DNA of 64,000 nt from Myxococcales bacterium (GCA_049841135.1 JASGHK010000002.1:863116-927115), one strand, 5' to 3'. Positions 10,147 through 58,342 are shown, counted from the stretch's first letter. The notes: generated by a model not told the origin, from the letters alone. Made by a program: numbers and translations.

Positions 10147-10151
10147 TCGTG

Positions 10152-33346: not shown

Positions 33347-33371
33347 GCGCGTTCAACAGCGAGCGGCGGTC

Positions 33372-34274
33372 TTGGCCAACAACATCCCCGACGATCCCCC
33401 AGGACAGGAAACCAGGGTCACGAAGATCAGCGTGGCGAAGATCAAGGCGCCCAGCGAGGCCTGCCTGGTCCAGATCTACGGTCCCGACCTGGGGAAGAAG
33501 TACCCGCTCAAGGACGTGAAGGACTTCACGGTCGGCCGCGAGGACGGCAACGACATCGTCGTGCCCCTCGACAACGTCTCGCGCAAGCACTGCCGCTTCC
33601 ACCAGAAGGGCGACAAGATCTTCGTCTCCGACCTGCAGTCCACCAACGGGACGACGCTCAACGACGAGGAGATCACCAAGGAGACGCCGCTGCGCTCCGG
33701 CGACCTGGTGAAGGTCGGCGGCGCCATCTTCAAGTTCCTCTACGGCGGCAACGTCGAGGCGCTGTACTACGAAGAGGTCTACCGGATGGCCATCGTCGAT
33801 GGCCTGACCCAGGTCTTCAACAAGCGCTACTTCCTGGAGTTCCTCGAGCGCGAGATGGCGCGCTGCCACCGCTACGGCCGGGCGCTGTCGCTGATCATGT
33901 TCGACATCGATCACTTCAAGCGCATCAACGACGACAACGGGCACCTGGCTGGCGACTACGTCCTGCACGACCTGGCGGCGCTGGCCAAGCAGCGGGTGCG
34001 CAAGGAAGAGTGCCTGGCGCGCTACGGCGGCGAGGAGTTCGCCATCGTGTTGCCCGAGAGCGGCCCGGACAAGGTGCGCGTCTTCGCCGACAAGCTGCTG
34101 CGGCTGGTCGCCGACCACAAGTTCAAGTTCGAAGACCGCGACATCCCGGTGACCATCTCCATCGGCGTGGCCGACATGTCGGCGGAGATCACCGAGCCCT
34201 CGCAGTTCATCAAGGCTGCCGACACCAAGCTGTACCAGGCCAAGCACGAGGGCCGGAACAGGGTGTGCGGGTAG
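33372..34274 (+). CDS. FHA domain-containing diguanylate cyclase (FHA-GGDEF)
   Basis: 300 aa with a TTG start. FHA block: FTVGREDGNDIVVPLDNVSRKHCRF...VSDLQSTNGTTLN. GGDEF block: DGLTQVFNKRYF...MFDIDHFKRINDDNGHLAGD...RYGGEEFAIVLPE. Confidence 0.88.
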   Translation: MANNIPDDPPGQETRVTKISVAKIKAPSEACLVQIYGPDLGKKYPLKDVKDFTVGREDGNDIVVPLDNVSRKHCRFHQKGDKIFVSDLQSTNGTTLNDEEITKETPLRSGDLVKVGGAIFKFLYGGNVEALYYEEVYRMAIVDGLTQVFNKRYFLEFLEREMARCHRYGRALSLIMFDIDHFKRINDDNGHLAGDYVLHDLAALAKQRVRKEECLARYGGEEFAIVLPESGPDKVRVFADKLLRLVADHKFKFEDRDIPVTISIGVADMSAEITEPSQFIKAADTKLYQAKHEGRNRVCG

Positions 34275-43648: not shown

Positions 43649-46546
43649 CTACCCCTTCAACGCCTCGGCGCACTTGGGGCACACCGGGTGGGTGGCGTCG
43701 ATGGCCTCGCTGAAGACCCAGCAGCGCGGGCACTTGGTGCCCGGGGCCCGCTCGAACTTGACGGACAGCGGCAGGCCGTCGGCCTTGGTCGCGCCCTCCG
43801 GGGCCTTGGCCGCGAGCTCGACCGCCGAGACGATGAAGAGCGCCGGCAGCTCGGCCTGCCGGGCCTTCAGCAGCCCTGCGAGCTCGGCGTCGTCCGAGGC
43901 CAGCACCACCTTCGCCTCGAGCGAGCTGCCGATGACCTTGTCCCGCCGCGGGACCTCGAGGACCTTCGAGACCTCGGAGCGCACGGCGAGCAGCTTGTCG
44001 TAGTCGGCGAGGATCCTCTCGTCGTCCGGGCGCACCTTCGCCTCGGGCAGGCCCGACAGGAACACGCTGTCGATCTTCTTGTGCGGCAGGAAGCCCCAGG
44101 CCTCGTCGCAGGTGAACGAGGTGATGGGCGAGAGCAGCTGCAGCAGCGCGACGAGGATCTCGTGGACCACGGTCTGCGCCGAGCGGCGGGCCTGCGACTT
44201 CTTCCCGTAGGTGTAGAGCCGGTCCTTGAGGATGTCGAAGTAGATCGCCGACAGCTCCACGGCGCAGAACTCGAGCGCCGCGTGGTAGACGACGTGGAAC
44301 TCGTAGTCCTCGTAGGCCTTGCGGACCTTGGCGACGAACTGGTTCAGCCGCGCCAGCGCCCAGCGGTCGATGGGCCACAGCTCCTCGACCTTCACTGTGT
44401 CCTTCTCGGGCTCGAAGTCGTGGAGGTTGCCCAGGCAGTAGCGCAGCGTGTTGCGGATCTTCCGGTAGCCCTCGGCCAGCTTGTCGAGGATCTCCTTCGA
44501 GGCGCGGATGTCGTCGCGGTAGTCGCTGGAGGCCACCCACAGCCGGGCGATCTCCGCGCCCTGCTCCTTGATGACCTTGTCGAAGGGCACGTAGTTGCCC
44601 AGCGACTTGGACATCTTCATGCCCTTGCCGTCGACCACGAACCCGTGCGTGAGCACCGCCTTGTACGGCGCGGTGTCGCGGGTGCCGACCGAGCACAGCA
44701 GCGAGGAGTGGAACCAGCCGCGGTGCTGGTCCGAGCCCTCCAAGTACAGGTCCACCGGCAGGCGGTGGTGCTTGCGCACGCCGGCGACGGCGGCCCAGGA
44801 CACGCCCGAGTCGAACCAGACGTCGAGGATGTCCTCCTCCTTGCGGAACTTCTCGCTCCCGCACTTCTTGCACTTGGTGCCGGCGGGCAGGAAGGCCTCG
44901 GGGCCGTGCGCGTACCAGGCGTCGGCGCCCTCCTTGTCGAAGGCGTCGGCGACCTTGTTCATGATCTGGGGGTCGACGATCTCCGTCTCGCAGTCCTCGC
45001 AGTAGAAGACCGGGATGGGCACGCCCCACGCGCGCTGGCGCGACACGCACCAGTCGGGGCGTGTCTCCAGCATGCCGAAGATGCGGTCGCGGCCCCACTT
45101 GGGGATCCAGCGGACCTTGTCCACTTCGGCGAGCGCCTTCTTGCGCAGGTCGTTCACCTCCATGGGGATGAACCACTGCGGGGTGGCGCGGAAGATGACC
45201 GGCTGCTTGCAGCGCCAGCAGCACGGGTAGCTGTGGCTGAGCTCGGCCTTGGGGTCGGAGAGCAGCGCCTTCAGGTCGACCAGCTTCTGGACGATCTTCG
45301 GGTTGGCGTCCCAGATGAGCTGGCCCTGGAACTCGCCGGCCTCCTCGGTGAACTTGCCGGCGCCGTCGACGGGGCTGAGCGTGTCGATGCCGTACTTGCG
45401 GCCGACCTGGTAGTCCTCGGCGCCGTGGCCCGGGGCGGTGTGGACCAGGCCGGTGCCGCTCTCGGTGGTGACGTGCTCGCCCAGGATGACCGGGCAGGTC
45501 TTGCCGTTCAGGACGTGGCGGTACTTGACGCCCTCCAGGTCCTTGCCCTGCAGGTAGCCCAGAACCTTGCCGGGGTTCTTGAGCGCGGCGACCGGGGCCT
45601 CCGGCGAGGGCTTGCTGTCCGCGGTGGTGTTGGCCAGCGCGACGTCCTTGATGGCCAGCTCGTCCGGAGCGCACTCGGACAAAAAGCTCGCGAGCAGCTC
45701 GCGCGCCACGACCAGCAGGCGGCCGTTCAGGTCGTAGACGACGTAGGTGAAGTCCGGGTGGGCGCTGATGGCGAGGTTGGCCGGCAGCGTCCAGGGCGTG
45801 GTGGTCCAGATGACCAGCTCGGCCTTCTTGCCCTTGAACGCGTCGCCCGGCAGCTCGCCCTGGACCGGGAAGGCCACGTAGATGGACGGCGACTTGTGGT
45901 CCTCGTACTCGACCTCGGCCTCGGCCAGCGCCGTGCGGTCGCGGATGCACCAGTAGACCGGCTTCTTGCCGCGCACCAGCGCGCCGCGCTCGGCGAAGCG
46001 GGCCAGCTCGCGCACGATGTTGGCCTCGTAGTCGAAGCTCATCGTCAGGTACGGCTCGTCCCAGCGGGCGAAGACGCCCAGGCGCTTGAACTCCTCGCGC
46101 TGGATGTCGACGTGGCGCTGGGCGTAGGCGCGGCAGGCCTTGCGCAGCTCGAGCTTGGACAGGCCCTTCTTGCGGCCGCCCAGCTCCTCCTCGCTCTTGA
46201 GCTCGATGGGCAGGCCGTGGCAGTCCCAGCCAGGGATGAACTCGCTGTGCTTGCCGGACATGTTTGCGTACTTGACCACGATGTCCTTGAGGACCTTGTT
46301 GAGGATGTGGCCCTGGTGGATGTGGCCGTTGGCGTACGGCGGCCCGTCGTGGAAGACGAAGAGCGGCTTGCCCTCGTTCTGGGCCATCAGCCGCTCGTAG
46401 GTCTTGCCGGCCTGCCAGCGCTCGAGCACCTGCGGCTCGCGTTGGGCCAGCGAGGCCTTCATCGGGAAGTCGGTCTTGGGGAGATTGACCGTGTCCTTGT
46501 AGTCCGTCTGAGCAGCCTTCTCGGGGGCCTTCGTTTCTTCAGCCAT
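43649..46546 (-). CDS. ileS: isoleucine--tRNA ligase
   Basis: ATG at 46544-46546 inside ORF 43649..46627. HIGH-type motif PPYANGHIHQGH, KMSKS motif KGMKMSKS and a C-terminal zinc-ribbon CPRCW...CPKC. Confidence 0.95.
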   Translation of the reverse strand: MAEETKAPEKAAQTDYKDTVNLPKTDFPMKASLAQREPQVLERWQAGKTYERLMAQNEGKPLFVFHDGPPYANGHIHQGHILNKVLKDIVVKYANMSGKHSEFIPGWDCHGLPIELKSEEELGGRKKGLSKLELRKACRAYAQRHVDIQREEFKRLGVFARWDEPYLTMSFDYEANIVRELARFAERGALVRGKKPVYWCIRDRTALAEAEVEYEDHKSPSIYVAFPVQGELPGDAFKGKKAELVIWTTTPWTLPANLAISAHPDFTYVVYDLNGRLLVVARELLASFLSECAPDELAIKDVALANTTADSKPSPEAPVAALKNPGKVLGYLQGKDLEGVKYRHVLNGKTCPVILGEHVTTESGTGLVHTAPGHGAEDYQVGRKYGIDTLSPVDGAGKFTEEAGEFQGQLIWDANPKIVQKLVDLKALLSDPKAELSHSYPCCWRCKQPVIFRATPQWFIPMEVNDLRKKALAEVDKVRWIPKWGRDRIFGMLETRPDWCVSRQRAWGVPIPVFYCEDCETEIVDPQIMNKVADAFDKEGADAWYAHGPEAFLPAGTKCKKCGSEKFRKEEDILDVWFDSGVSWAAVAGVRKHHRLPVDLYLEGSDQHRGWFHSSLLCSVGTRDTAPYKAVLTHGFVVDGKGMKMSKSLGNYVPFDKVIKEQGAEIARLWVASSDYRDDIRASKEILDKLAEGYRKIRNTLRYCLGNLHDFEPEKDTVKVEELWPIDRWALARLNQFVAKVRKAYEDYEFHVVYHAALEFCAVELSAIYFDILKDRLYTYGKKSQARRSAQTVVHEILVALLQLLSPITSFTCDEAWGFLPHKKIDSVFLSGLPEAKVRPDDERILADYDKLLAVRSEVSKVLEVPRRDKVIGSSLEAKVVLASDDAELAGLLKARQAELPALFIVSAVELAAKAPEGATKADGLPLSVKFERAPGTKCPRCWVFSEAIDATHPVCPKCAEALKG

Positions 46547-46661
46547 GACGCTCCAACTCCGCGAAAAAAGAGGGGATTGGCTACCACGGAAGGAACAGGG
46601 ATTCCATGAAGTAATTCGGGCAGTCACCCTGCGACCAGACCCTGTGCGCGGCCGAGTAGCC

Positions 46662-48011
46662 TCAGGAGCCCTTGTCGGACTTCCGGGACGGCGGCGCCGG
46701 GACGAGGCTCAGGTTGCCTTCGCGCTCGTCCGCCTGGACCACTGACAGCCCGCCGGAGTCGAGCCCGGATCCGATGCGCCCCTGGATCCAGCGGATGGCC
46801 TCCTGGGCCTCGTCCTTGATCTGGGGATCGGCCAGGAAGCCCTTGGTCAGCGGCAGCAGCGGCTCGACCGCACGGGCGGTCCCGGCTCGTGCCAGCGCCG
46901 CGACGGCTGCGCGGCGGACCTGGAGCTCGTCGCGCTCCAGCAGGCGCAGGAGGGCCGTCTCGCCGCGCGGGTCGCGCAGCTTGCCGAGCGTCTCGGCGAC
47001 CGACTTGGCCAGCCCCTCGTCCTTGGCGACCGAGAGCCGAGAGAGCGCGTCGACGAAGCGCTGGTCGCGGTGCGAGCCGATGGCCTCGACGGCCATCAGC
47101 GCCAGGCCCGGCACCTTCCGGTCGAGCGCGCCGGTGAGGATCGGCTCGCAATCGGCCCAGGCGAACTTGGCGAGCGCGAACTCGAGCGCCTTCTTGCGCG
47201 TCTGTTCGGGCGCCGCCGGGTCGGCCACGACCTTCTCGAGCGCCTCCCTGCCCTTGCGCGGCTCGAGCAGGTGCGCCACGGCGGAGAGCATGACGTTCGG
47301 GTCCGAGTCCGACGTCGCACGCTGGGCGAGCCGCTCGACGTGCCCCACCTGAGCCTGGTGGTGCTTGGCCAGCGCCAGCAGGTTGTTCTGCCGGACTCGG
47401 GCGACCGGGTCGTGCTCGGCGTTGTGGCACAGAGCGTCGGGGACCGACGTGACCCTCAAGAGCTCCGCCACCTCGAGCATCGCTCGTGCAACCTCGACGA
47501 CGTCCTTGGCCGTCACCGCCTGATCCAGCTCGACCGTGAGCTCGCCCGCCTTCACCACGCCCTTGAGGCGCACCGCGAAGTCGAGGACGCGGGCGCGCGC
47601 CTCGGCGTCCAGCGGTGCGAGCGCGACGTCGGTGGGCCCGGAGGCGTGGACGTGCCGATCGAAGGCCTCGTCGCCGGTGGGGACGTGATCGGCGGGTGGA
47701 ACGGCCGCGACGAAGGCCAGCGCGGTGGAAGGCACCAGGGAGAGCCTGGGCGAGATCTGGCCGTGGGACTTGAGCCGGAACCGGGTCTTGGGCGCGTCGT
47801 CGCCTTCGGCGTAGCCCTCGATCTCCACGGTCTGCCGGTCGACGAAGCCAACGATGCGGGGCTTCTGGAAGCGCGTGCTGACGAACTGCAACTTGAGCTG
47901 CTGGGCCGCGTCTCTCCACAGCTCGGGGTTGGACTGCAGCCGGAACCGGCTGAGGAGCCAGAGGCAGGCGGCGAGGCCGATGAGGCCCAGGTAGATCCAG
48001 ATCGTGGTCAC
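46662..48011 (-). CDS. membrane-anchored HEAT-repeat protein, paralog 1 of 6 (most diverged)
   Basis: 449 aa with a GTG start. One N-terminal TM helix (IWIYLGLIGLAACLWLL) is followed by basic residues. Shares the family blocks GDEAFDRHVHASGP.., VPDAL..N..HDP...VR.NNL and GTARAVEPLLPLTKG...AIRWIQGRIG...GGLSVV. Confidence 0.8.
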   Translation of the reverse strand: MTTIWIYLGLIGLAACLWLLSRFRLQSNPELWRDAAQQLKLQFVSTRFQKPRIVGFVDRQTVEIEGYAEGDDAPKTRFRLKSHGQISPRLSLVPSTALAFVAAVPPADHVPTGDEAFDRHVHASGPTDVALAPLDAEARARVLDFAVRLKGVVKAGELTVELDQAVTAKDVVEVARAMLEVAELLRVTSVPDALCHNAEHDPVARVRQNNLLALAKHHQAQVGHVERLAQRATSDSDPNVMLSAVAHLLEPRKGREALEKVVADPAAPEQTRKKALEFALAKFAWADCEPILTGALDRKVPGLALMAVEAIGSHRDQRFVDALSRLSVAKDEGLAKSVAETLGKLRDPRGETALLRLLERDELQVRRAAVAALARAGTARAVEPLLPLTKGFLADPQIKDEAQEAIRWIQGRIGSGLDSGGLSVVQADEREGNLSLVPAPPSRKSDKGS

Positions 48012-48089
48012 CGGCGCGCCCCCACGCCAGGCGCTACGAAGGCGCCGCCCTCACTGCGCCGGAGCGCGATGGTCGCCAGCCCCACGTCG

Positions 48090-49424
48090 TCAGCCGCCTT
48101 CCTTCTCCCGGTCGTCCGGGACCGGGTTCTCCAAGCTCAGCGCGCCGTCCGCCCCGGCGCCGTCCACCACCGAGAGCCGGCCTGCGTCGGCGTCGCCCAA
48201 TCTTGCCTGGATGCGGCGCACGGCGTCTCGGGCCACCGAGCTTACGGCCCCGTCCTTGGCCGATTGCAGCAACGGCTCGACGGCGCGGACCGTGCCGCAC
48301 TCGCCGAAAGCCTTCGCGGCGGCCGCCTGGACCTCGCGAGACTCGTGGCGCAGCAGCGTGAAGAGCGCGTCCTCGGCACCGGCCCCGCCAACGGCGCCAA
48401 GAGCTTCCGCCAGCGCCTCTCCCAGCGGCAAAGGCGCGACTTGGGAAGCGAGGGAGGCCAACGCCTCCACCTTCGACTCGTCCTTGCTCTTTCCCACCGC
48501 GCGCACTGCCGCGCAGCGAAGCTCCAGCGACTCGGCTGACAGCGCCCAGGCGACGAGTGGCGCAGCGCTCCCGTACGAGAAACCAGAGACGAGCCTCTCG
48601 AGCGCCATCGCCCGAAGCTCCTCGGGCAGCGAGCGGTTCTCGACCAGCTTCACCAGGACCTCCCGAGCCTCGGGATCCCCCGGAAGCCGCTCTGCTGCGA
48701 AGAGCCGCATCGCGGGGTCCAGGTCACGCAGCGTCGCCTGGTATGCCCACAGCGCCTCTCGGGTCTCCGGGTGGAACTGCGACAACGCGTCGAGGCACTT
48801 GTGCCTCACGTCCGCGCTCAGGTCCTTGGTCGCGTTCTCGAGCAGCGCCTTCGGGAGGGAAGGGACTGCGAGGTGCCCCGCCAACTCGAGCATCCCCCGC
48901 ACTGCTGTGACGAAGTCCTCGGGATCCGTGTGGCGCTCGAGAGCCAGCTCCAGGCCGCTGCCCGCGACCTTGCCCCCTTCGCCGACGAAACTGACGAGGT
49001 CCGCTCTCGTCTGTGCGCCCAGCGCGGCGAGCGCGGCATCGAGCGGGCCGCGAACGCGCACTTGCTTGTCGAAATCCTCCGCGCCCGTCACCACATCCTC
49101 TTGCTTGCCCTGAGGCCAGAGCCCGCGCCGCTCGATCTGCAGGGTCTCGGCGATCCGGCCACCGCTCTGGACGATCACGCGGATGAGGTCCGGACTCGTC
49201 TGCTCTTCGATCTCGACCGCGAAGCCGTCGACCGTTCCTTCCAGCCGGTGGCCTCCCTGAGGCCGGTCGAGCTCGCGCAGCCCCAGCTCTCGCGCAGGCT
49301 CGCTCCATCGCTTCACGGCGGCCCGCTTCGCCCGCGCGTCGCTTCGGACGACAGCCCACAGAAGCGCCGTCAGCCCGGCGACCGAGGCGCCCATCGCGAG
49401 GATGACCAGGGATGCAGTTCCCAC
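48090..49424 (-). CDS. membrane-anchored HEAT-repeat protein, paralog 2 of 6
   Basis: 444 aa. TM helix (LVILAMGASVAGLTALLWAVV) followed by RSDARAKR. Family blocks GAEDFDKQVRVRGP and SLPKALLENATKDLSADVR. Tail GTVRAVEPLL...ARDAVRRIQARLGDADAGRLSVVD. Starts 5 nt after the stop of paralog 3. Confidence 0.82.
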   Translation of the reverse strand: MGTASLVILAMGASVAGLTALLWAVVRSDARAKRAAVKRWSEPARELGLRELDRPQGGHRLEGTVDGFAVEIEEQTSPDLIRVIVQSGGRIAETLQIERRGLWPQGKQEDVVTGAEDFDKQVRVRGPLDAALAALGAQTRADLVSFVGEGGKVAGSGLELALERHTDPEDFVTAVRGMLELAGHLAVPSLPKALLENATKDLSADVRHKCLDALSQFHPETREALWAYQATLRDLDPAMRLFAAERLPGDPEAREVLVKLVENRSLPEELRAMALERLVSGFSYGSAAPLVAWALSAESLELRCAAVRAVGKSKDESKVEALASLASQVAPLPLGEALAEALGAVGGAGAEDALFTLLRHESREVQAAAAKAFGECGTVRAVEPLLQSAKDGAVSSVARDAVRRIQARLGDADAGRLSVVDGAGADGALSLENPVPDDREKEGG

Positions 49425-49429
49425 GCGCC

Positions 49430-50806
49430 CTAGTCTCCCCGGTCCTTCGTCCCGTTAGGAAGCGGTGGCACGCTCAACCCACCGCCGACCCGCGCGTCCA
49501 CGACCGAGAGCCGGCCGGCGTCAGCGTCGCCCAACCGGGCTTGGATGGCGCGCACGGCCTCTCTCGCAGCATCCCCGACGGCTCCGGCCAGGACGCCCTG
49601 GGTCAACGGCAGGAGCCACTCCACTGCGCGCACGGTCCCGACCTTCGCGAGCGCGGCCGCGGCGGCCACCTTCACCTTCGCCGACTCGTGCGCCAACAAG
49701 CCGAGCAGCGCCTTCTCGGCCTCGCTCTCTTCAAAGACGCCGAGCGCGTTCGCCAGCGCCTCTCCCACCTCGGCCGGGAGCCTCATCGGCGCCGCACACT
49801 GGGCCGCGAGCCGTTCCAGCTGCGAGGCGTCCCGAGCCATGGCCACGGCGCGGATGGCGGCGCACCTCAGCAGGGGCGCGGGCGTGAGCGGATCGGAGGC
49901 GAGCGCCCGCGCCACCGTCACGGCGACCGCCTCGTAGGGATGCCCTTCCACCAGTCGGTCGAGCGCCTGCGCACGCACCCCGTCGGTCTGGACCAGGTCC
50001 TCGACGACCTCCGAGAGCGCCACGCGCGCTGCCTCCTCGCCCACCAGCGCCTGCGCCGCCCAGATCCGGGTCTCCGCGACGGAGTCGTCCAGCGCGGCGT
50101 GCAGCGCCTCTCGCGCCTCGGCCGAGCCGGGGTACCGGGTCACCAGCACCTCGAGGTTCCGCCTGCGCACCCTCGAGTTCGGGTCCTTCGAAGCGTTCTC
50201 CAGCAGCGCAACCGGGACCGAGGAGACCTCCAGCGACTGGGCCAGCGCGACGGCGTACTGGGTGAGCTCCCGGATCCGCTGGGGTTCCCCGGGCCGGTCG
50301 AGCGAATTGAAGAAGAGGTTTCCCCGCTCGACCGTCCCGCCCGCGTCGACCCACGTACGCAGCAGCGTGCGCGCACGGACACCCAGGGCGGCGAGCACCT
50401 GGTCCTCGGGCCCCTCGACGTGCACGAGCTTGTCGAAGGCGGCGTCGTCCAGCTGCACGTCCTCGCCCTCGAACCGCTTCACGATCCCCGCGAGCGGAGC
50501 CTCGCGCCGCAAGTCCAGCGTTGCGCTGATTCGCCCATTCCCCGCCAGCCGCACGCGCAGGAAGCTGCCCTGCTTGCTGCGGTAGACCTCGTCCACGATG
50601 ACGCCGAAACCCTGGTCCTCGCCGACGAGGTGCGGCGCTCCCTTGGTGTCGACGCCGAACGTCATCCCCGTCTGGTCGGCCAGGCGTCTCCAGCGCCTCT
50701 CCGCGTCCCGCTTCGCGTCGCGGCGAACGGAGACGATCAGCGCCGTCAGCATCCCCACGCCGGCGCACAAGCCAGCGACGGCGACGCCGATCGCCCATAG
50801 GTCCAT
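49430..50806 (-). CDS. membrane-anchored HEAT-repeat protein, paralog 3 of 6
   Basis: ATG at 50804-50806 inside ORF 49430..51301 gives MDLWAIGVAVAGLCAGVGMLTALIV-SVRRDAKRD. The start shares one base with the paralog 4 stop (TGATG). Family blocks DDAAFDKLVHVEGPEDQVLAAL and SVPVALLENASKDPNSRVRRRNL. Tail ..AREAVRAIQARLGDADAGRLSVVD. Confidence 0.82.
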   Translation of the reverse strand: MDLWAIGVAVAGLCAGVGMLTALIVSVRRDAKRDAERRWRRLADQTGMTFGVDTKGAPHLVGEDQGFGVIVDEVYRSKQGSFLRVRLAGNGRISATLDLRREAPLAGIVKRFEGEDVQLDDAAFDKLVHVEGPEDQVLAALGVRARTLLRTWVDAGGTVERGNLFFNSLDRPGEPQRIRELTQYAVALAQSLEVSSVPVALLENASKDPNSRVRRRNLEVLVTRYPGSAEAREALHAALDDSVAETRIWAAQALVGEEAARVALSEVVEDLVQTDGVRAQALDRLVEGHPYEAVAVTVARALASDPLTPAPLLRCAAIRAVAMARDASQLERLAAQCAAPMRLPAEVGEALANALGVFEESEAEKALLGLLAHESAKVKVAAAAALAKVGTVRAVEWLLPLTQGVLAGAVGDAAREAVRAIQARLGDADAGRLSVVDARVGGGLSVPPLPNGTKDRGD

Positions 50807-52179
50807 CAGCCGCGTTCCTTGGCCTTGTCGCCCGTGCCCAGGCTCAGCCCGCCCTCCCCGGCCTTCTCGTCCACCACCGACAGCCCGCCCGCCTCGACCT
50901 CGCCGAGCCTCGACTGGATGCCGCGGATCGCCCCTCGCGCGGCCTCCTTGAGCGAGCCGTCTGCGAACAGGCCTTGAGTCAGCGGCAGCAACCGCTCGAC
51001 CGAGCGCACCGTCCCGAGCCTCGCCAGGGCCTTGGCCGCGGCGGTCTTCACCTCGACGGCGTCGGAGGCGAGCAGGTCCAGCAGCATCGGCTCGGCGCCC
51101 GGCCCGGCGGCCTTCCCCAGCGCCTCGGCGAGTGCGGCCCCGAGCGCCGGCTCGGTGGTCCTGGCGAGGTCCGGCCTCGCGAGCAGCGGCGCCGCGTCGC
51201 TCGCGTTTCCGGCCGCCTTCACCGCCGCGATGCGCATGGCTTCGCTCGGCAGGTCGAGCGCCTTGGCGACGTGGCCCGAGACCGTGGAGTACGGGTAGCA
51301 CTCCACCAGGAGCTGCAGGACCTTCCCGCGCTGCTCGTCGGTGAGCGCGCGCGCCGAGTCGAACAAGCTCTCCAGCACCGACCGGACCTTGTCGCCCTTG
51401 CGCAAGACGCTGGCCGCGTAGATCCGGTTATCGAGCGAGCGATCGCCCAGCGCGTCCTGAAGCACCTCGCGCGTCTGGGGCAGGTTGCGGTCGCGCTTCA
51501 CCAGCATCTCGAGGTTCCGCCGGCGCACGCCCGGATTGGGATCGCTGCGCGCGTTGCGCACCAGCGCCTCGACGACGCCCGGCACCTTGAGCGCGTCGGC
51601 GGCATCGACCATGGTCCGGACGAGCGAGACCATCAGCGCGGGGTCGCTCACCAGCCCGGTCACCTCGACGCCGACCTTCCCGTCCTTGACCTCGCCGCGC
51701 CTGGCGGCGAGCTTGAGCACCGCCATGCGCGCCCGCTCGTTCAGCGCCGCCACCACGGCATCCTCGGGGCCCTGGACGTTGACCGCGGCGTCGAAGGTCG
51801 GGTCGTCGAGCTGGATGTCCTCGCCGGCGAAGACCTTCTTGAAGCCTTCCCAGGCGGACTCCGGCTTGAGCTCCATCCGCTCGTGAAAGGCGCCGCGGCC
51901 GTCGAGGGTGAAGCGGGTATAGGCCTGCGAGTTCTTCCCGGAGTTGCGGCTGAAGGTGTCGATGAGGATGCGGTGGCCGCCGATGACGCCCGCGATCTCC
52001 CGGCCGCTGGACATGCCGAGAAACGTCTTCGCGTGCACCTCGAGCCCGAGCTGCGCGGCGGCGACGCGCCACGCGGCCTCGACCCTGCGCTGCTTCAGGT
52101 GCGAGACGAGGAACACCAGGCCCGCGGCGCCGACGCTGATGGCGATGGGGAGGAAGGGTCCGATGCCGTGGTCCATCAT
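50806..52179 (-). CDS. membrane-anchored HEAT-repeat protein, paralog 4 of 6
   Basis: 457 aa. TM helix (FLPIAISVGAAGLVFLV) followed by SHLKQRR. Family blocks DDPTFDAAVNVQGPEDAVVAAL and NARSDPNPGVRRRNL. Tail GTVRSVERLLPLTQG...ARGAIRGIQSRLGEVEAGGLSVVD. The start overlaps the paralog 5 stop (ATGA, 52176-52179). Confidence 0.82.
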   Translation of the reverse strand: MMDHGIGPFLPIAISVGAAGLVFLVSHLKQRRVEAAWRVAAAQLGLEVHAKTFLGMSSGREIAGVIGGHRILIDTFSRNSGKNSQAYTRFTLDGRGAFHERMELKPESAWEGFKKVFAGEDIQLDDPTFDAAVNVQGPEDAVVAALNERARMAVLKLAARRGEVKDGKVGVEVTGLVSDPALMVSLVRTMVDAADALKVPGVVEALVRNARSDPNPGVRRRNLEMLVKRDRNLPQTREVLQDALGDRSLDNRIYAASVLRKGDKVRSVLESLFDSARALTDEQRGKVLQLLVECYPYSTVSGHVAKALDLPSEAMRIAAVKAAGNASDAAPLLARPDLARTTEPALGAALAEALGKAAGPGAEPMLLDLLASDAVEVKTAAAKALARLGTVRSVERLLPLTQGLFADGSLKEAARGAIRGIQSRLGEVEAGGLSVVDEKAGEGGLSLGTGDKAKERG

Positions 52180-53516
52180 CCGCGCTCCTGCTCCTTCTGG
52201 TTCGCCACTGCGCCGACGCTGAGGCCGCCCTCTCCCGCGCGCTCGTCGACCATCGAGAGCCGCCCGCCGTCGGCGTCGCCGAGCCTGGACTGGATGGCGC
52301 GGATCGCGTCGCGTGCGGCTTCCTTGAGCGCGGCGTTGCCCAGTACGCCTTGCGAGAGCGGGAGGAGCGGCTCGACGCTGCGGACGGTTCCGGCCTGGGC
52401 CAGCCCGACCGCGGCCTCGCGCTTGACCGCGTCGGAGCCGCTCTGGAGCAGCGCGATCAGGCTGGACTCCGCCTCGCTTCCGCCGATGGCGGCCAGGGCC
52501 TTGGCGAGCGACCGGCCCAGGGCCTCGTCGCGGGTCGCCACGAGGTTGTGCAGGGACGCCAGCTGCGAGGCGTCCCTGCCTCGACCGGCGGCCTCCACCG
52601 CCACCCGGCGCAGCGGCTCGAGCTCCTGGTACAGGGCGCGTCGGACGAGCGGGGCGATCGCGTCATAGGGGAAGAGCTGCGAGAGGCGCTCCAGGGCCGC
52701 GGCGCGCACGGCCACGGCGGCCTCCCGATCGTCCACCAGCGCTTCGAGCGTCCTTTGCACCGCCGCGCTGGCGTCCGCTCGCTGCGCTGCCAACAGCCGC
52801 ACCTCGGGGTCACGGTCGGAGAGCGCCGCCTCCAGCGCTTGCCCGGTTTCGGGAGCGGCCGCGTGGCTTGCGAGCAGCGCGGCCAGGTTCCGGAGGCGGA
52901 CCTGCGAATTGGGATCGGTCCGCACATTGCGCAGCAGCGCCACAGGGACGGAGTCGACGACCATCGACTTGGCGACCTTCGCCAGCAGCCGGGCTTCCTT
53001 CTGAAGGGGCGCCCCGCCAATCCCTGCCCCTTCGTAGTGGAAGACCAGGTTCCCCGACTCCACGACCCCGCCCGAGGCGACGAAGTCGCGCACCAACGCA
53101 CGCGCCTCGACCCCCAGGGTCGCCAGGACCACGTCCTCGGGGCCGCGAATCTTCACCGCCGCGTCGAACTCGGCATCGCCGACCTGGACGTCGTTCTTGC
53201 CCAGCGCCTTGCGCAGCCCTTGCCACGAGGACTCGACTCCGAGCGCGATGTCCGGAGGAACGCGGCCCTTGCCGTCGAGCATCAGGCGGCTACCGGTCCG
53301 GCGGTTCTCTCCAGAGCCTTTCTCGAAGATCTCCAGGCGCAGCTCAAAGCCTTCGATCTCGCCTTCCCAGGCGCGCTGCGCGACGTCATCGGTGCCAAAG
53401 GCCCCCGAGCTGGCCGCGCCGAAGTTGTCCGAGCGGTCCTTGAAGTGGCGGATGGCCATCGGAATGCCGAACGCCGCCCCAACGACCAGAATGAGGAACC
53501 AGACGAACCCTTCCAT
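52176..53516 (-). CDS. membrane-anchored HEAT-repeat protein, paralog 5 of 6
   Basis: 446 aa. TM helix (FVWFLILVVGAAFGIPMAI) followed by RHFKDR. Family blocks GDAEFDAAVKIRGPEDVVLATL and SVPVALLRNVRTDPNSQVRLRNL. Tail GTVRSVEPLLPLSQG...ARDAIRAIQSRLGDADGGRLSMVD. Starts 3 nt after the stop of paralog 6. Confidence 0.82.
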   Translation of the reverse strand: MEGFVWFLILVVGAAFGIPMAIRHFKDRSDNFGAASSGAFGTDDVAQRAWEGEIEGFELRLEIFEKGSGENRRTGSRLMLDGKGRVPPDIALGVESSWQGLRKALGKNDVQVGDAEFDAAVKIRGPEDVVLATLGVEARALVRDFVASGGVVESGNLVFHYEGAGIGGAPLQKEARLLAKVAKSMVVDSVPVALLRNVRTDPNSQVRLRNLAALLASHAAAPETGQALEAALSDRDPEVRLLAAQRADASAAVQRTLEALVDDREAAVAVRAAALERLSQLFPYDAIAPLVRRALYQELEPLRRVAVEAAGRGRDASQLASLHNLVATRDEALGRSLAKALAAIGGSEAESSLIALLQSGSDAVKREAAVGLAQAGTVRSVEPLLPLSQGVLGNAALKEAARDAIRAIQSRLGDADGGRLSMVDERAGEGGLSVGAVANQKEQERG

Positions 53517-53519
53517 GGC

Positions 53520-54890
53520 TCAGCCCTTCTCCCCGGCACGCGTGACCTGCCCGACGCTGAGAGCGCCCTCCTCCGCCACGGCCTGCACCACCGAGAGACG
53601 TCCTCCGCCAGCGTCGCCCAGCCTCGCCTGGATGGCACGGACGGCGTCGCGGGCCGCATCCTTGAGCGCTCCGTCGGCCAGGACACCTTGGGTGAGCGGC
53701 AGCAGCGGCTCGACGGCGCGGACGGTGCCGACCTTGCCAAGGCCGGCAGCGGCCTCCCGCCGCACAGCGGCCGACTCGTGGCCCAGGAGCTTGATGAGGC
53801 CGGGCTCGGCGAGCTCGCCCGCCGTGGCAAGCGCCTTCGCCAGAGCGCTGGCGACGCCCTCGTCGTGCAGCGGGGCGAGCTTCTCCATGGCCACGAGCCG
53901 GTCGACGTCTCTCCCCGCGCCCGCCGCGGCGATCGCCGCGCGCTTGAGCTCGAGCGCATCGCTCGCGAACGCGCGGCCGACGTGCGCCGCGACCTCCGGA
54001 TAGGGCCAGGCCCCGGCGAGCCGCTCGAGCGCGGATGCTCGGATCTCGGCAGGCACGCGCTCGTCGTCCAAGAGCGCCTCGAGCACCTGCTGGGCCTCCT
54101 TCTGAGCCGGCGAGAGCCGAGCGGCGAGCAGGCGGATAGCCGGGTCCGCGTCGACGAGTGCGGCCTGCAGGGCCTTGGCCGACTCGGGACTGCCGGAGTG
54201 CATCTGAAGCAGCGCCGTCAGGTTGCGCCGCCGCAGCTTCGGGTCTGCTTCCTTGGTCGCGTTCTCGAGCAGCGCCGCAGGGACCGAGGCGATCGCGAGG
54301 CTCCTGGCGACCGCGAGCATCGACTGGACCGCTCCTTCGATCTCCTTTCGGTCCCTCAGCTCGCCGTTCCACTTCAAAAGCAGCTCGCCTTCGCGGACGA
54401 CGCCGCCGCGGGCCAGGAAGGCCAGCAGGTCTTTGCGCGCCTGCGGCTTGAGCACCGCGAGCGCCACGTCCTCGGGCCCCTGGACCAGGACCGCCTTGTC
54501 GAACTCGGCCTCCCCGAGCTCGACGTCCTGCGCGCCGGCGACCTTGCGAACCGCATCCAGAGCCGTCTCGGACTTGAGGCTGAGCTCGGCGGGGACCATT
54601 CCGCGCGTGCCGAGGACGGCCCGGGTGTACTTCCGGGGCGTGCTGTGCTCCCTCAGCCCGGGGTCCTCGTTCTCGGTCCACGTCTCGACCAGCACGTCGA
54701 AGCCGTCGACCTTCCCGTGCAGCGTCCAGCCCGCCCCTTCGCTGTAGTCCAGCCCGAGCGCCCGGCCTGCGGACCACCAGGCCTCCTCGGCCTCCTGTGA
54801 GGACTTCCCGGGCCGGTCTTGCAGCCAGCGCGCGAAGAGCGACACTCCGACCGCAGCGACGCCGCACAGAATCCAGGTCACGGCTTCCAT
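53520..54890 (-). CDS. membrane-anchored HEAT-repeat protein, paralog 6 of 6
   Basis: ATG at 54888-54890 inside ORF 53520..55271 gives MEAVTWILCGVAAVGVSLFARW. An AGGAGGGGG Shine-Dalgarno lies in the 23-nt gap after the Hsp70 stop. Family blocks GEAEFDKAVLVQGPEDVALAVL and SVPAALLENATKEADPKLRRRNL. Tail GTVRAVEPLLPLTQG...ARDAVRAIQARLGDAGGGRLSVVQ. Confidence 0.82.
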   Translation of the reverse strand: MEAVTWILCGVAAVGVSLFARWLQDRPGKSSQEAEEAWWSAGRALGLDYSEGAGWTLHGKVDGFDVLVETWTENEDPGLREHSTPRKYTRAVLGTRGMVPAELSLKSETALDAVRKVAGAQDVELGEAEFDKAVLVQGPEDVALAVLKPQARKDLLAFLARGGVVREGELLLKWNGELRDRKEIEGAVQSMLAVARSLAIASVPAALLENATKEADPKLRRRNLTALLQMHSGSPESAKALQAALVDADPAIRLLAARLSPAQKEAQQVLEALLDDERVPAEIRASALERLAGAWPYPEVAAHVGRAFASDALELKRAAIAAAGAGRDVDRLVAMEKLAPLHDEGVASALAKALATAGELAEPGLIKLLGHESAAVRREAAAGLGKVGTVRAVEPLLPLTQGVLADGALKDAARDAVRAIQARLGDAGGGRLSVVQAVAEEGALSVGQVTRAGEKG

Positions 54891-54913
54891 GACGGTCCCC
54901 CTCCTGACTCGAA

Positions 54914-56602
54914 TCAGAGCAACCGGACGACGGGCTCGGCCTTCATCAGGTGCTTCTTGGTGCGTAGGTCGAAGACGGTGGCGCACAGCCAGCGCTCGGC
55001 GTTGACCCCGAAGGCCACCTCCAGGCGCGGGCGCGAGTCCTGTGGCGAGTGCGGCGGGTCGAGGTAGCCCAGCGCCGGGTTGGCCTCGTTGAGCTTGACC
55101 ACCAGCGGGCCCTCGCCCTGCCCGTCCTTGCCGCCCATCTTGTGCAGCTGGCCGGTGGCGTCCCAGCCGAAGGTGCGCCCCTCGCCGCCCTCGCCGATCT
55201 CGCAGATGACGAGCTTGAAGACCTTCTCCGGCTCGCCCAGCGCGCAGGTGGGGACGAGCTGGCGCTTCCACAGGTCGAGCTGGGTCGGGAAGCGGGTGCC
55301 CTTGGGCACGATGACGGTGTGCTCCGGCTTCTTGGACTTGAGGTCGTAGGTCACGAGCGCGTAGTCGTGGACGATGAAGTCGACCGGCTCGGTGCGCCCG
55401 GCGGCGAAGACTGCGGCCCCGTAGGCCACCGCCTCGAACGGCTGCCAGGCGCGGACCTTGGCGCGCCCGAAGCGCGTCTCGAACATCTTGTAGACCTCGG
55501 GGAGCAGCGTCGAGCCGCCGACCATCAGCACGTCCTCGACGTCCGACTCCGAGAGCCCCTTCTCCCGGGCCTGCTCCAGGACCTCGGCGAGGCAGTGCTC
55601 GAGCGCGCCGTAGACGCCGCGCTGGCGCAGGAGATCGATGAGGTCCTGCTGGGTCAGCTCCACCGAGCGCGCGTCGCCGCGCAACCGGGCCGAGAGGCTG
55701 CGCAGGTGCTCGGGCGGGGCCAGCTCGAAGACCGCCTGCTTCTTGAAGAAGATGGCCTCCTTGGCCCGGCAGGCGTCGGCGAGCATCAGCCGCCGCCAGA
55801 GCAGGACCTCCTCGGAGGCGTCGTCGTCGAGCGGGAACTCGAGGCGCCGGCAGAGCTCAGCCAGGAGCCACTGGTCGACGAGGTTGCCGCCGATGTCGCG
55901 GCCGGCCTTGGCGACGACCTCGCTGCTGCCCTTCTGCACGCCCGCCGGGTCGAGCCGGATGAGGGCGACGTGCATCGTCCCGCCGCCGAAGTCGACGACC
56001 AGGACCTTGCGCTGCCGGGTGAGCCCGAGGCCGTAGCCGAGCGCCGCGGCGACCGGCTCGTCCAAGAAGCGCAGCTTCTTGATGCCCAGCGCCTTGCCGG
56101 CCGCGACCAGCTCCGCGCGGTACGTCTCGAAGGCCTCGACGGGCGAGGTGATGGCGAGGTCGCGGATCCGCTCGCCGGTGACGGCCTTGGTCTCGGCCAT
56201 CAGCTCGCGCAGGAACATCCGGCAGACCTCGCGGGCCGAGAAGCTGGTCTTGCCGATGCGCGCGATGGGCATCAGGGGCGCGGTGCCGAGCACGCGCTTG
56301 AAGGTGGAGACGAACTGGGGCCGCTGCTGGACGGCGTTCATCTCCAGCGCCGGGCGGCCGATGTGGGCGAGCTTGCCCCAGAAGAAGTTGCGGGCGAGCG
56401 GCCCCGACTGCCCGAGCTTCGCCCACACCCCCGGCTCCTCGAGGACGTGGACCGCCGAGGGGACGGCGCGGGCGGCATCGACGGCGTCTGCGTGGCCGGG
56501 CTTGCGGCTGAGGTTGGGGAGCTCGAGCAGCGCCGGGCGGTCCGCCTGCGGTTCCCAGCGCGCGAGCAAGGTGTTGGTGGTGCCGAGATCGAGAGCCCAC
56601 AT
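54914..56602 (-). CDS. atypical Hsp70/DnaK-superfamily ATPase lacking the helical lid
   Basis: ATG at 56600-56602 inside ORF 54914..57337 (562 aa). Actin-fold ATPase motifs are intact: ALDLGTTNT (phosphate 1), VLVVDFGGGTMHVAL (phosphate 2), VLMVGGSTLLPEV (adenosine) and LDEPVAAALGYG. About 170 aa of beta-rich C-terminus follows, with no alpha-helical lid and no EEVD. Confidence 0.88.
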   Translation of the reverse strand: MWALDLGTTNTLLARWEPQADRPALLELPNLSRKPGHADAVDAARAVPSAVHVLEEPGVWAKLGQSGPLARNFFWGKLAHIGRPALEMNAVQQRPQFVSTFKRVLGTAPLMPIARIGKTSFSAREVCRMFLRELMAETKAVTGERIRDLAITSPVEAFETYRAELVAAGKALGIKKLRFLDEPVAAALGYGLGLTRQRKVLVVDFGGGTMHVALIRLDPAGVQKGSSEVVAKAGRDIGGNLVDQWLLAELCRRLEFPLDDDASEEVLLWRRLMLADACRAKEAIFFKKQAVFELAPPEHLRSLSARLRGDARSVELTQQDLIDLLRQRGVYGALEHCLAEVLEQAREKGLSESDVEDVLMVGGSTLLPEVYKMFETRFGRAKVRAWQPFEAVAYGAAVFAAGRTEPVDFIVHDYALVTYDLKSKKPEHTVIVPKGTRFPTQLDLWKRQLVPTCALGEPEKVFKLVICEIGEGGEGRTFGWDATGQLHKMGGKDGQGEGPLVVKLNEANPALGYLDPPHSPQDSRPRLEVAFGVNAERWLCATVFDLRTKKHLMKAEPVVRLL

Positions 56603-56692
56603 GCGGCCCCGACGATAGCGGCGCCGCTCCGCCAGTGGCAAGGAGCCGTGCGCCGGGTGCGCAGGGAGGAAGCTGCGGTAGCATCCGCGGCC

Positions 56693-57449
56693 ATGACGAC
56701 CCTGCGCGAGATCACCCGCTACCTGGACGAAGAGCTCAAGCTCGGCGAGATCCCCGACGAGCCGAACGCGGTCAACGGCCTGCAGCTGGACGCCGGCACC
56801 CAGGACGTCGCACGCGTCGCCTGCGGCGTGGACGCCGGGGACGCGACGATCGAAGCCGCCTGCAAGCTCGGCGCGAACCTGCTGGTCGTCCACCATGGCC
56901 TGATGTGGGGCGGTAACCGGCCGTACGTCGGGCCGCACGGCCGCAAGCTCAAGCGCTGCTTCGACGCGGGGATGTCGGTCTACTCGGCGCACCTGCCGCT
57001 CGACGTGCACCCGGTGCTGGGCAACAACGCCGGGCTGGCCAGGGCGCTGGGGCTGACCGTCGACGGGACGTTCGGGAAGTTCCAGACGATTCGAGCTCGG
57101 GCTGAGCGCCGGCTGCGACCTCTCGCTCGCGGAGCTGTCGGCGAAGGTGCGCTCGGCCATCGGCGAGCACCGCATCGCCGGCGCCGGACCGGACCGCATC
57201 CGGCGGCTGGGCCTCTGCAGCGGCGGCGCGGGCTCGTACGCCTCGGCCGCGGCGCGAGCCGGGCTCGACGCGCTGCTCACCGGCGAGGGGCCGCACCACA
57301 CCGCCATCGAGGCCGAGGAGCGCGGCATCCACCTCATCCTGGCCGGGCACTACCGGACCGAGACGTTCGGGGTGAAGGCGCTCGGCGAGCGGCTGGCGGC
57401 CAGGTTCGGCGTGAGCTGGAGCTTCGTCGAGCACGACACCGGGCTGTGA
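56693..57449 (+). CDS. NIF3/YbgI-family dinuclear-metal protein; apparent +1 frame break at 57088-57092
   Basis: From ATG 56693: ..PNAVNGLQL..LLVVHHGLMWGG..YSAHLPLDVHPVLGNNAGLARALGL.. ORF 57147..57449 supplies ..CSGGAGSYASAAARAGLDALLTGEGPHHTAIEAEERGIHLILAGHYRTE.. in the next frame. Deleting one T of GATTC gives FGKFQTIELGLSAGCDLSLAELSAKV. Confidence 0.82.
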
Positions 57450-57496: not shown

Positions 57497-58342
57497 TCAT
57501 CGGCCTTTGGGCTTGCCTCCGGCAGCCGTGGTTTGGCTGTAGCTGCGGCGGCCCGCCCAGACGCGCGTCCGGCTGCGAAGGCCGTCGAGGACGAAGGAGC
57601 CAGTATCCGAGGTGATCCTCGTGATTGCCTTTCCCGTCGCGCGCCTGAAGTCAGCTCCGAACGCCTCGCATCGACCCGCGTCGCCGCCGCAGACGGCCGT
57701 TGGGGAATTGCTTGAAAGCAGCTCCCAGGTGCGCAGAGCCTGCTTGGGGTCGGCATCCGGAGGCGACTGGTAGAAGAGGTGCGGCACCGCGCGCGCGACC
57801 GCGAGGGCCTCGAAGTGGCGCGGGAAGAACTGGAAGAAGACCACCGGCTCCCCACCCATCCCCAGCCCGCGGGTGACGAGCGCCGAGGTCAGCGCGAGGT
57901 CGGTGTACTCGAACACCGGGTCCGGGAAGCCGGCCTCGCTGAGCCTGGACAGCACGCGCTGCTCCCCTGCCTCCTGGCCCCGGTGAGCGTGAGCGACCAC
58001 CCGGCGGGTGGCCGCTCCGGGCAGATCGACGACGAGGTCCATGTCCTGCTCGTCGATCGGCGAGGGCATCAGCTCGAGGAGACCGCGTGTGCACACCTTG
58101 AGATCTGGCGCTGGCTCCGCAGGAACCTCGACCGAGCGGAAGAGGTGGCTGTGGTCGAACGAGCAGTAGACCGTGCGCTCGGCGCGTGAGCGCACGGCAG
58201 CCGTCGCCCGGAGGAGCGCGTCGAGCTCCACTGCCGAAGGCACGGGCTGGGCCCAGGGCGAGACGCCCAGAGGCTGCGTACACCCCGTGTCCGAGGCCCA
58301 GACTTCGGCGGCCTCGTCGATGGCAACGATGAAGAGTTCCAC
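57497..58342 (-). CDS. hypothetical protein
   Basis: 281-aa ORF with protein-like composition. It is co-directional with the peptidase gene and starts 39 nt downstream of it. There is a faint, unverified resemblance to degenerate actin-fold (PilM/FtsA-like) proteins (..VFEYTDLALTSAL.., ..AVCGGDAGRCEAFGADFRRATGKAI..). Confidence 0.5.
   Translation of the reverse strand: MELFIVAIDEAAEVWASDTGCTQPLGVSPWAQPVPSAVELDALLRATAAVRSRAERTVYCSFDHSHLFRSVEVPAEPAPDLKVCTRGLLELMPSPIDEQDMDLVVDLPGAATRRVVAHAHRGQEAGEQRVLSRLSEAGFPDPVFEYTDLALTSALVTRGLGMGGEPVVFFQFFPRHFEALAVARAVPHLFYQSPPDADPKQALRTWELLSSNSPTAVCGGDAGRCEAFGADFRRATGKAITRITSDTGSFVLDGLRSRTRVWAGRRSYSQTTAAGGKPKGR

Follow-up and report, generated by a model that had tools for sequence, protein, structure and literature searches.

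What does a single Hsp70-type ATPase do at the head of a row of six diverged, membrane-anchored HEAT-repeat proteins? This question is raised by a locus on the minus strand of a 64,000-nucleotide (nt) stretch of DNA from a Myxococcales bacterium (GCA_049841135.1 JASGHK010000002.1:863116-927115), referred to as the window herein, in which a gene for a 562-amino-acid (aa) Hsp70-family protein is followed by six paralogous genes of 444-458 aa (46662-54890). We found members of the same two families side by side in two bacterial phyla, and a conserved functional partnership between this lidless Hsp70 and a membrane-anchored cytoplasmic HEAT protein is well supported by the genome comparisons. Gene order, domain architecture, a bias in membrane topology, cross-phylum synteny, independent expansions of the partner and a gradient of conservation along it could all be read directly. 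The genes of the unit, with the paralogs numbered p1 to p6 and compared with the closest relative, locus L001, are as follows.

54914-56602, minus strand: Hsp70-family ATPase, first gene of the putative operon; ATG start, 562 aa, Pfam HSP70 match of 134 bits
53520-54890, minus strand: p1, transmembrane (TM)-HEAT protein; 456 aa, structure model with a mean predicted local distance difference test (pLDDT) score of 91
52176-53516, minus strand: p2; 446 aa, L001 ortholog 59% identical
50806-52179, minus strand: p3; 457 aa, start overlaps the p2 stop by 4 nt, L001 ortholog 64% identical
49430-50806, minus strand: p4; 458 aa, start overlaps the p3 stop by 1 nt, best L001 match 44% identical, no clear ortholog
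48090-49424, minus strand: p5; 444 aa, GTG start, L001 ortholog 58% identical
46662-48011, minus strand: p6; 449 aa, GTG start, last gene, 78 nt after p5, L001 ortholog 72% identical

All seven open reading frames (ORFs) translate stop-free at these coordinates. As the window has a G+C content of 70%, at which long spurious ORFs are common, G+C at the third codon position (GC3) was checked and found to be 0.84-0.93 in the stated frame for all seven genes. A longer Hsp70 of 807 aa, starting at an upstream ATG at 57337, was rejected: its frame is open, but GC3 changes frame near 56700, the added translation is Arg/Pro-rich nonsense, and a Nif3 gene lies on the opposite strand. Since all orthologs begin MW[AS]LDLGTTN, the 562-aa call is right.

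The gaps from the Hsp70 gene to p6 are 23 nt (with an AGGAGG), 3 nt, a 4-nt overlap, a 1-nt overlap, 5 nt and 78 nt, the same order and spacing that an earlier reading of the window from sequence alone, the first-pass annotation, had described. Given spacings of the translational-coupling type, Shine-Dalgarno sequences and a consensus scan that gave no convincing internal terminator, co-transcription of the seven genes is plausible. The same type of scan gave one promoter match.

56612-56641, minus strand: sigma-70-like promoter match, TTGCCA, 18-nt spacer, TATCGT; a consensus-scan result, not evidence of function

It was the only match in 46300-57000, where 0.0 were expected from shuffles. 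Only 10 nt, without a Shine-Dalgarno sequence, separate the end of the predicted -10 element from the Hsp70 ATG, so that the transcript may have just a very short leader or be leaderless. Within the array, the final codons of p1-p4 (...EKG, ...ERG, ...ERG and ...DRGD) were seen to double as the purine-rich Shine-Dalgarno sequence of the following gene:

53520-53545, minus strand: end of p1, GGAG/AAGGAG
52176-52200, minus strand: end of p2, GGAG/AAGGAG
50806-50830, minus strand: end of p3, GGAG/AAGGAG
49430-49455, minus strand: end of p4, GGAG/AAGGAG

Conservation at the extreme C-terminus within arrays may therefore be a ribosome-binding-site constraint rather than one on protein function.

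Is the arrangement peculiar to this genome? A genome scan, with one genome per species, gave 80 loci with Hsp70 orthologs of 51-91% identity, all from metagenome-assembled genomes (MAGs) and several with doubtful taxon labels. They come from Myxococcota (including Bradymonadia, a Sorangium MAG and Nannocystaceae) and Acidobacteriota (Thermoanaerobaculia, Vicinamibacteria and Holophagales). Using a hidden Markov model of the six paralogs, iterated once, we looked for partner genes within 10 kb of each Hsp70. The six-paralog profile finds the same gene beside orthologous Hsp70 genes elsewhere, with E-values down to 1e-159. Of the 80 loci, 50 had a partner, which was immediately downstream and co-oriented in 41, divergent and just upstream in 6, convergent in 1 and distant in 2. 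The first-pass annotation had named a lack of such linkage in advance as what would refute its reading, and with these 50 loci in two phyla that refutation fails. In quick neighbor-joining trees, the Hsp70 orthologs of Acidobacteriota form a coherent clade apart from those of Myxococcota, with one Acidobacteria-labelled locus, L074, outside it; linkage was found in 27/27 loci of the Acidobacteriota clade and 10/10 of the window's own Myxococcota clade. Reverse look-ups from six partner homologs showed an adjacent Hsp70 in three, one of them with paralogs on both sides, and the others were one solitary copy and two arrays whose short contigs show no Hsp70.

Clustering of the neighbour ORFs of the 80 loci gave no third recurrent gene. 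The second-largest cluster consisted of shadow ORFs antisense to the HEAT genes, and the third, which had no fixed position, was heterogeneous. In partner-free loci, the downstream genes scanned encode a GDSL lipase, a flavin monooxygenase, an ABC transporter and secreted Cys-rich or unknown proteins, which bear no relation to the partner or to each other. In two Acidobacteriota loci, partner genes stand on both sides of the Hsp70 gene, which is thus not always the first. L049 has four upstream and at least two downstream. In L087 there is at least one upstream, and downstream there are four with HEAT_2 matches and possibly a fifth, truncated by the end of the contig. On a further contig of 10.9 kb, L083, which has no Hsp70, a 450-aa partner homolog stands amid three same-strand genes of comparable length, 433, 461 and 454 aa (5550-10930, plus strand). 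The run follows an ExbB/ExbD cluster and a 335-aa gene at its head, which proved unrelated to the TM-HEAT family.

The ATPase itself is a clear member of the Hsp70 superfamily. Pfam HSP70 (PF00012) matches residues 79-441 with 134.3 bits against a cut-off of 20.6, and a profile of 27 orthologs retrieves DnaK from the PDB at E = 4e-36, in an alignment that runs from residue 4 to approximately residues 442-458 and spans the nucleotide-binding domain (NBD), the linker and the first strands of the beta part of the substrate-binding domain (SBD-beta). Scores against the named subfamilies were well below their cut-offs: 110-111 bits versus 648-823 for DnaK (TIGR02350/NF001413), whose helical lid (SBD-alpha) is lacking in the model of the window protein; 104-111 versus 620-709 for HscA (TIGR01991/NF003520); and 61 versus 331 for the YegD-type, NBD-only Hsp70 (NF008673), instead of which a 150-residue beta domain follows the linker here. 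Three parts can be delimited.

55394-56602, minus strand: NBD, residues 1-403; pLDDT mostly 75-97 per 10-residue block
55358-55381, minus strand: interdomain linker D408-F-I-V-H-D-Y-A, (nearly) invariant in the family, aligned with DnaK DVLLLDVTPL
54917-55357, minus strand: beta-only C-terminal domain, residues 416-562, with no helical lid; homologous to the start of Hsp70 SBD-beta

The AlphaFold model (mean pLDDT 71) is good over most of the NBD, with dips to 49-70 near residues 31-50, 61-70 and 251-310, and poor past residue 407. DSSP assigns only strands to residues 414-562 and no helix after residue 400, at a model pLDDT of 32-67, and the best Foldseek match in the PDB is a Mycoplasma DnaK without SBD-alpha (5obu, E = 6e-29); both agree with the first-pass description of a lidless ATPase. 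About 35 or more residues of the C-terminal domain are invariant, including the hydrophobic residues W445, F462 and L464. In a manual extension of the alignment these three would fall at the DnaK pocket positions F426, V436 and I438, and FKLVICEIGE would correspond to the Hsp70 signature VTIHVLQGE.

The actin-fold ATPase motifs (phosphate-1, catalytic Glu, phosphate-2 and adenosine) are all present in the window protein, and D5-x-G-T-T-N, E182, D204-x-G-G-G-T209 and G362-G-S-T are invariant in the 27 orthologs (D5-L-G-T-T-N and D204-F-G-G-G-T209 in the window). The earlier statement that every motif is kept thus stands for this protein, but the family varies at two positions: the DnaK K70 equivalent, K77 here, is K, R, Q or P, and the D201 equivalent, H211 here, is H in 15 sequences and D in 12. 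The DnaK R167 equivalent, R178, is conserved, and J-domain and GrpE partners may therefore act in trans. As the first-pass annotation had noted, neither is encoded in the window, as judged by tblastn with E. coli J-domain and GrpE query sequences, and DnaJ lies within 10 kb in only 2 of the 80 orthologous loci. The Hsp70 has no signal peptide. With 51-64% identity across phyla and a ratio of nonsynonymous to synonymous divergence (omega, dN/dS) of 0.22, it is under strong constraint and probably active.

The six paralogs are 32-43% identical to one another, and all exceed the Pfam HEAT_2 (PF13646) cut-off of 27.7 with 38-61 bits, in agreement with the HEAT/ARM-like repeats of the first-pass annotation. 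Each has one N-terminal hydrophobic 19-mer with a Kyte-Doolittle mean of 1.8-2.4. A model of p1, based on an alignment of 101 family sequences, reached a mean pLDDT of 91 and resolves four parts.

54819-54887, minus strand: TM helix, residues 2-24, followed by a basic cluster; from the model helix, hydropathy and the charge bias of the family
54291-54800, minus strand: membrane-proximal alpha/beta domain, residues 31-200; from the model and conservation
53622-54284, minus strand: HEAT solenoid, residues 203-423; HEAT_2, paired helices, pLDDT ~97
53523-53621, minus strand: disordered C-terminal tail, residues 424-456; motifs GRLSVV and GALSV, pLDDT <50 over 429-450

The first half of the alpha/beta domain is the most variable part of the protein, and its second half bears a conserved GDxxFDxxVxVxGxE block; the domain matched nothing consistently in Pfam (28 members, E up to 5) or among PDB sequences (E up to 10). 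Foldseek with p1 returned generic alphaRep and PBS-type HEAT solenoids (alphaRep, E = 2.5e-5), and scores against the phycobilin lyase-type HEAT proteins CpcE/NblB were 13-25 bits versus NCBIfam cut-offs of 300-330, a similarity at the level of the repeat only.

The N-terminal anchor is kept in 90 of the 101 family members, with a median of 2 residues before it. Net charge is -0.3 before the anchor and +1.6 in the 15 residues after it, and neither a lipobox nor a positively charged n-region is present. On this basis an N-out, C-in topology with the bulk of each paralog in the cytoplasm, as first proposed from the window alone, is a well-founded prediction. The charge bias of the partner, together with the missing signal peptide of the Hsp70, would place the two in the same compartment. 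The family is large: 5852 representative proteins match it at E <= 1e-30, a count that includes giant HEAT-repeat proteins with several matching stretches, and most of the 150 best-scoring matches are full-length, single-stretch proteins of 420-500 aa. Existing annotation of its members reads 'HEAT repeat domain-containing protein' or hypothetical only. This size comes from an exhaustive profile search, as word-indexed searches gave just 11 proteins with a paralog and 18 with the paralog profile because Ala/Leu-rich words saturate the candidate list.

Conservation rises along the paralogs. Mean pairwise identity among the six copies is 25% in the TM helix, 24% in the first half of the N-domain, 35% in the half with the FD motif, 35% in the HEAT region, 54% in the last HEAT repeats (residues 346-423 of p1, strongly conserved) and 60% in the tail. 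The conserved tail reported by the first-pass annotation is in fact the most conserved segment over the 101 family members even though it is predicted to be disordered, which is the signature of a short linear docking motif. The information content is highest (2.96 bits) at residues 421-435. This segment starts within the helix, whose final three residues are 421-423, and runs into the beginning of the disordered tail, reading IQxRLGxAxAGRLS[VL]. Repeats of the G-x-L-S-[VL] type, with further ones of the form G-x-[LV]-S-[LVI], occur as two or three motifs in ~90% of the 101 members. We also observed, directly after the Hsp70 gene of L001 (11693-12079, plus strand), a 129-aa 'mini-paralog' in which a hydrophobic N-terminal helix is joined to the last HEAT repeat and a G-x-L-S tail. 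This is either the remnant of a deletion or a minimal module for anchoring and docking.

How representative is an array of six? The usual state is one partner per locus, and arrays of 3-8 occur in scattered lineages (3 in L069 and L002, 4 in L051, 6 in L054 and L049, ~7 in L059). The picture of one enzyme with many diversified partners, which the first-pass annotation drew from the window, consequently describes the window itself; most loci are 1:1. In the partner tree the copies of the window and L001 form one clade and the Acidobacteriota expansions are separate from it, indicating that arrays are independent, lineage-specific expansions. L001 has seven copies and a fragment versus six in the window, with clear one-to-one pairs for p2, p3, p5 and p6, the last being the most divergent of the six copies; p1 is a weaker pair, and p4 has no clear ortholog. 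Judging from these pairs, the array predates the split of window and L001, with later gain or loss accounting for p4 and the extra L001 copies. The inference of an old array, drawn earlier from the divergence of the copies, agrees with this. The companion claim that no nucleotide-level repeats exist is correct for high-identity repeats, of which we found none, but has to be amended for weak periodic similarity (60-75% identity in blocks 1335-1413 nt apart).

The two components evolve at different rates. Between the window and L001, the Hsp70 is 91% identical (dN 0.056, dS 0.25, omega 0.22) and the orthologous partners are 50-72% identical (dN 0.18-0.45, dS 0.5-0.84, omega 0.35-0.54), as estimated pairwise by NG86 in a genome whose codon bias is extreme. 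Positive selection was rejected, as pairwise dN/dS is below 1 in every region and at most 0.9. Partner evolution outpaces that of the Hsp70 3-4-fold in all lineages surveyed. Since single-copy pairs show the same gap (Hsp70 91% versus partner 71%; Hsp70 85% versus partner ~57%), fast evolution is a property of the family and not of the array, and it provides no specific evidence for an arms race.

To account for these observations, we propose a dedicated two-component Hsp70 module, tandemly expanded in the window, in which the constant C-terminal end of the partner docks the ATPase at the inner face of the membrane and the variable N-domain gives specificity; we put its chances close to even, though somewhat short of that. 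A physical interaction between the two proteins, the surfaces involved and the process served are what we infer from the pattern of linkage and conservation. The components would be a cytosolic Hsp70 with an NBD, an allosteric linker and an SBD-beta-like domain but no lid, together with cytoplasm-facing HEAT proteins anchored in the inner membrane. The last HEAT repeats and the disordered tail, with its two or three G-x-L-S-[VL] motifs, would dock the ATPase and hold it at the inner face of the membrane. The tail would sit as an extended hydrophobic peptide in the SBD-beta cleft, and the solenoid may also touch the NBD. NRLLLTG is the model DnaK peptide, and GRLSVV resembles it. The variable membrane-proximal N-domain would set the binding target or site of action of each copy, and one ATPase could thereby serve six specificities in the window genome.

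Several observations weigh against this proposal. In the remaining Myxococcota/Bradymonadia clade, a partner lies within 10 kb in only 13 of 43 loci, and the partner arrays and solitary copies with no Hsp70 in view indicate that linkage is not obligatory. The structure models cover the Hsp70 and p1 as single proteins, and the argument from the binding pocket depends on a manual alignment, as the SBD-like domain is modelled at low confidence. The tail motifs are flanked mostly by acidic residues, and acidic flanks are disfavoured by canonical DnaK. Finally, the Foldseek matches of p1 are generic HEAT proteins with no specific likeness to known Hsp70 co-chaperones.

A more far-reaching version is possible but doubtful: that Myxococcota and Acidobacteriota possess a new kind of Hsp70 machine, in which a lidless Hsp70 would be plugged by its SBD-beta cleft onto the G-x-L-S-[VL] tail, diversifying domains would select targets at the inner face, and arrays would multiply specificities for membrane-protein surveillance or conflict. 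If true, this would give a bacterial DnaK derivative, of which there are many, its first assigned function and partner. Independent tandem expansions of the partner beside one ATPase gene would be an example of widening the range of a chaperone by more adaptors, not by more chaperones. In any case, the locus gives one subfamily of DnaK derivatives a testable candidate partner, with synteny in two phyla, a confidently predicted structure and a defined candidate docking motif, and the partner family is itself large and uncharacterised.

The same synteny and the same conserved, disordered tail would be expected if the TM-HEAT proteins were instead clients of an Hsp70 dedicated to their folding, membrane insertion, assembly or turnover, with the tail as a recognition tag. 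The recognition of a short conserved IscU motif by HscA is an established precedent, and a single chaperone gene goes with 1-8 partner genes. We regard this explanation as unlikely, although it deserves serious consideration. It leaves unexplained why a single-pass protein with a high-confidence solenoid (pLDDT 91) should need an ATPase of its own and why the N-domain diversifies while the C-terminal end stays constant, and partner genes are also present without a nearby Hsp70.

It is less probable still, and on the whole improbable, that the HEAT solenoid is a nucleotide-exchange factor that replaces GrpE, as a bacterial analogue of HspBP1/Fes1/Sil1 whose tail would be a substrate-mimicking release element like that of Fes1. 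Eukaryotic ARM-repeat exchange factors with a substrate-mimicking segment are established, the partner is an alpha-solenoid with a conserved, disordered hydrophobic tail, and the window has no GrpE gene; a GrpE encoded elsewhere could nevertheless work in trans. None of HspBP1, Fes1 and Sil1 is among the top 50 Foldseek matches, which are generic solenoids of the alphaRep, PP2A-A and importin types, there is no Pfam match to Fes1, and six diverged exchange factors for one ATPase are hard to explain.

The first-pass annotation had likened the locus to the sensor and adaptor arrays of conflict systems, and a defence function, in which the diversified copies would be membrane sensors and the Hsp70-like ATPase the switch that reads them out, appears very unlikely from what the comparisons returned. 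Copy number does differ between close relatives, as in the window and L001, partner dN is 3-8 times that of the Hsp70 (with dS higher too), and an Hsp70 NBD/SBD together with HEAT repeats occurs in CnuD of the CoCoNuT systems. Searches of PADLOC-DB v2 gave partial HEAT-ARM_XIII matches of 23-35 bits to a model of 1972 positions, an 18-bit match of the Hsp70 to PDC-M61B and no system-level match, so that the resemblance is weak and generic. Against a role in defence, the loci have no effector domain and no conserved third gene, and the neighbours are housekeeping genes (ileS-lspA-lgt, Nif3) with no island context. In the Hsp70 tree a coherent Acidobacteriota clade stands apart from the Myxococcota sequences (L074 excepted), and the protein shows conservation comparable with that of DnaK. 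Its ATPase motifs are intact where those of CnuD are reported to be degenerate, and the partner evolves equally fast when single-copy, with omega values (0.35-0.54 overall, no higher than 0.9 in any region) below 1. Lastly, incidental adjacency of independent genes is effectively excluded by the synteny, because, common as HEAT proteins are and although linkage is absent in 30 of the 80 loci, the same family with its TM anchor, N-domain, HEAT repeats and tail stands beside the same Hsp70 subfamily in two phyla in which all other neighbours have turned over.

The unit is limited to the Hsp70 and the six paralogs, as the genes downstream of p6 are ileS, which begins after ~115 nt, followed by lspA and lgt. 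These housekeeping genes were rejected as operon members, since only the window and L001 show the linkage. Upstream, a Nif3/DUF34 gene that is divergent from the Hsp70 fills the adjoining stretch. The further features of the window that we recorded are as follows.

56693-57449, plus strand: Nif3/DUF34 gene, split between two frames near 57100-57150, with PF01784 positions 2-125 in one and 158-251 in the other
57497-58342, minus strand: 281-aa ORF, coding-like GC3, no Pfam match
58382-59962, minus strand: membrane-anchored protein with a Gly-rich N-terminus, papain-family Peptidase_C1 and DUF4384; 87% identical in L001
62260-63460, minus strand: separate FHA-domain protein and double-zinc-ribbon protein, near the window end
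33249-34274, plus strand: FHA-GGDEF diguanylate cyclase
14140-20028, minus strand: 1962-aa protein with CarboxypepD_reg, Big_13 and fibronectin type III domains
2416-3939, plus strand: IS66-family transposase, ~43 kb from the locus, the sole mobile-element gene seen in the window

The split of the Nif3 gene reflects either a frameshift, and hence a pseudogene, or an assembly error. The 281-aa ORF is missing from the otherwise collinear L001, where ~216 nt take the place of ~930 nt here, a difference that points to a lineage-specific insertion or deletion. The Peptidase_C1/DUF4384 gene is unlinked to the Hsp70 in other loci. The FHA-GGDEF, FHA and zinc-ribbon genes are typical of myxobacterial signalling and unrelated to the Hsp70 unit, and the 1962-aa protein is probably a large surface or secreted protein.

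How, then, does the locus compare with known systems? No published description of an Hsp70/TM-HEAT pair was found in the literature searched, and the novelty claimed for the pairing in the first-pass annotation stands within that scope. Closest to the ATPase are the DnaK derivatives with a short or missing SBD, which number up to 11-13 per myxobacterial genome, occur in bacteria with complex lifestyles and have functions called an open question, according to a recent review (FEBS J 2026, PMC13580251). The window Hsp70, from a myxobacterial-type genome, likewise keeps its NBD and has a truncated, lidless substrate-binding region. In contrast to those derivatives, for which the passages of the review that were consulted (PMC13580251) name no dedicated partner, it has a specific syntenic partner family, and its subfamily extends into Acidobacteriota.

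Among better-characterised chaperones, the HscA/HscB/IscU system also joins a specialised Hsp70 gene to a partner gene, with a short conserved peptide motif as the likely recognition element in our locus; here, however, there is no linked J-protein, and the partner is a membrane-anchored HEAT protein that is tandemly amplified and not an Fe-S scaffold. HspBP1, Fes1 and Sil1 are alpha-solenoids paired with Hsp70, and Fes1 has in addition a flexible segment that mimics substrate, to which the conserved disordered tail of the TM-HEAT proteins is analogous. They differ from the bacterial partner, which is membrane-anchored and has an extra N-domain, and share with it no detectable sequence similarity or specific structural similarity. 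Tim44 with mtHsp70 and Sec63 with BiP may offer a parallel in concept, in that a membrane-bound partner localises a soluble Hsp70; they are not homologous to the proteins described here and act as tethers at protein translocons, to which we saw no link.

The Hsp70 associations described in the survey of conflict systems by Kaur et al. (2020) are with GTPases and tubulin, or are GrpE/DnaJ fusions, and not with TM-HEAT genes. The only published association of an Hsp70 NBD/SBD with HEAT repeats that we found is CnuD/CnuCD of the type III CoCoNuT systems, in which a single polypeptide unites the two or they are joined to the McrC N-terminal domain, the operons include the McrB GTPase, cold-shock domains and nucleases, and the ATPase motifs are degenerate (eLife 2024, PMC11090510). 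No McrB or McrC component was detected among the window genes scanned with Pfam (a subset of the ORFs), and none recurred in the orthologous loci. By its description CnuD is set apart from the pair studied here, in which separate genes encode an Hsp70 with intact ATPase motifs and a TM-anchored HEAT protein. We read the locus as a specialised Hsp70 with a genomically linked, dedicated partner.

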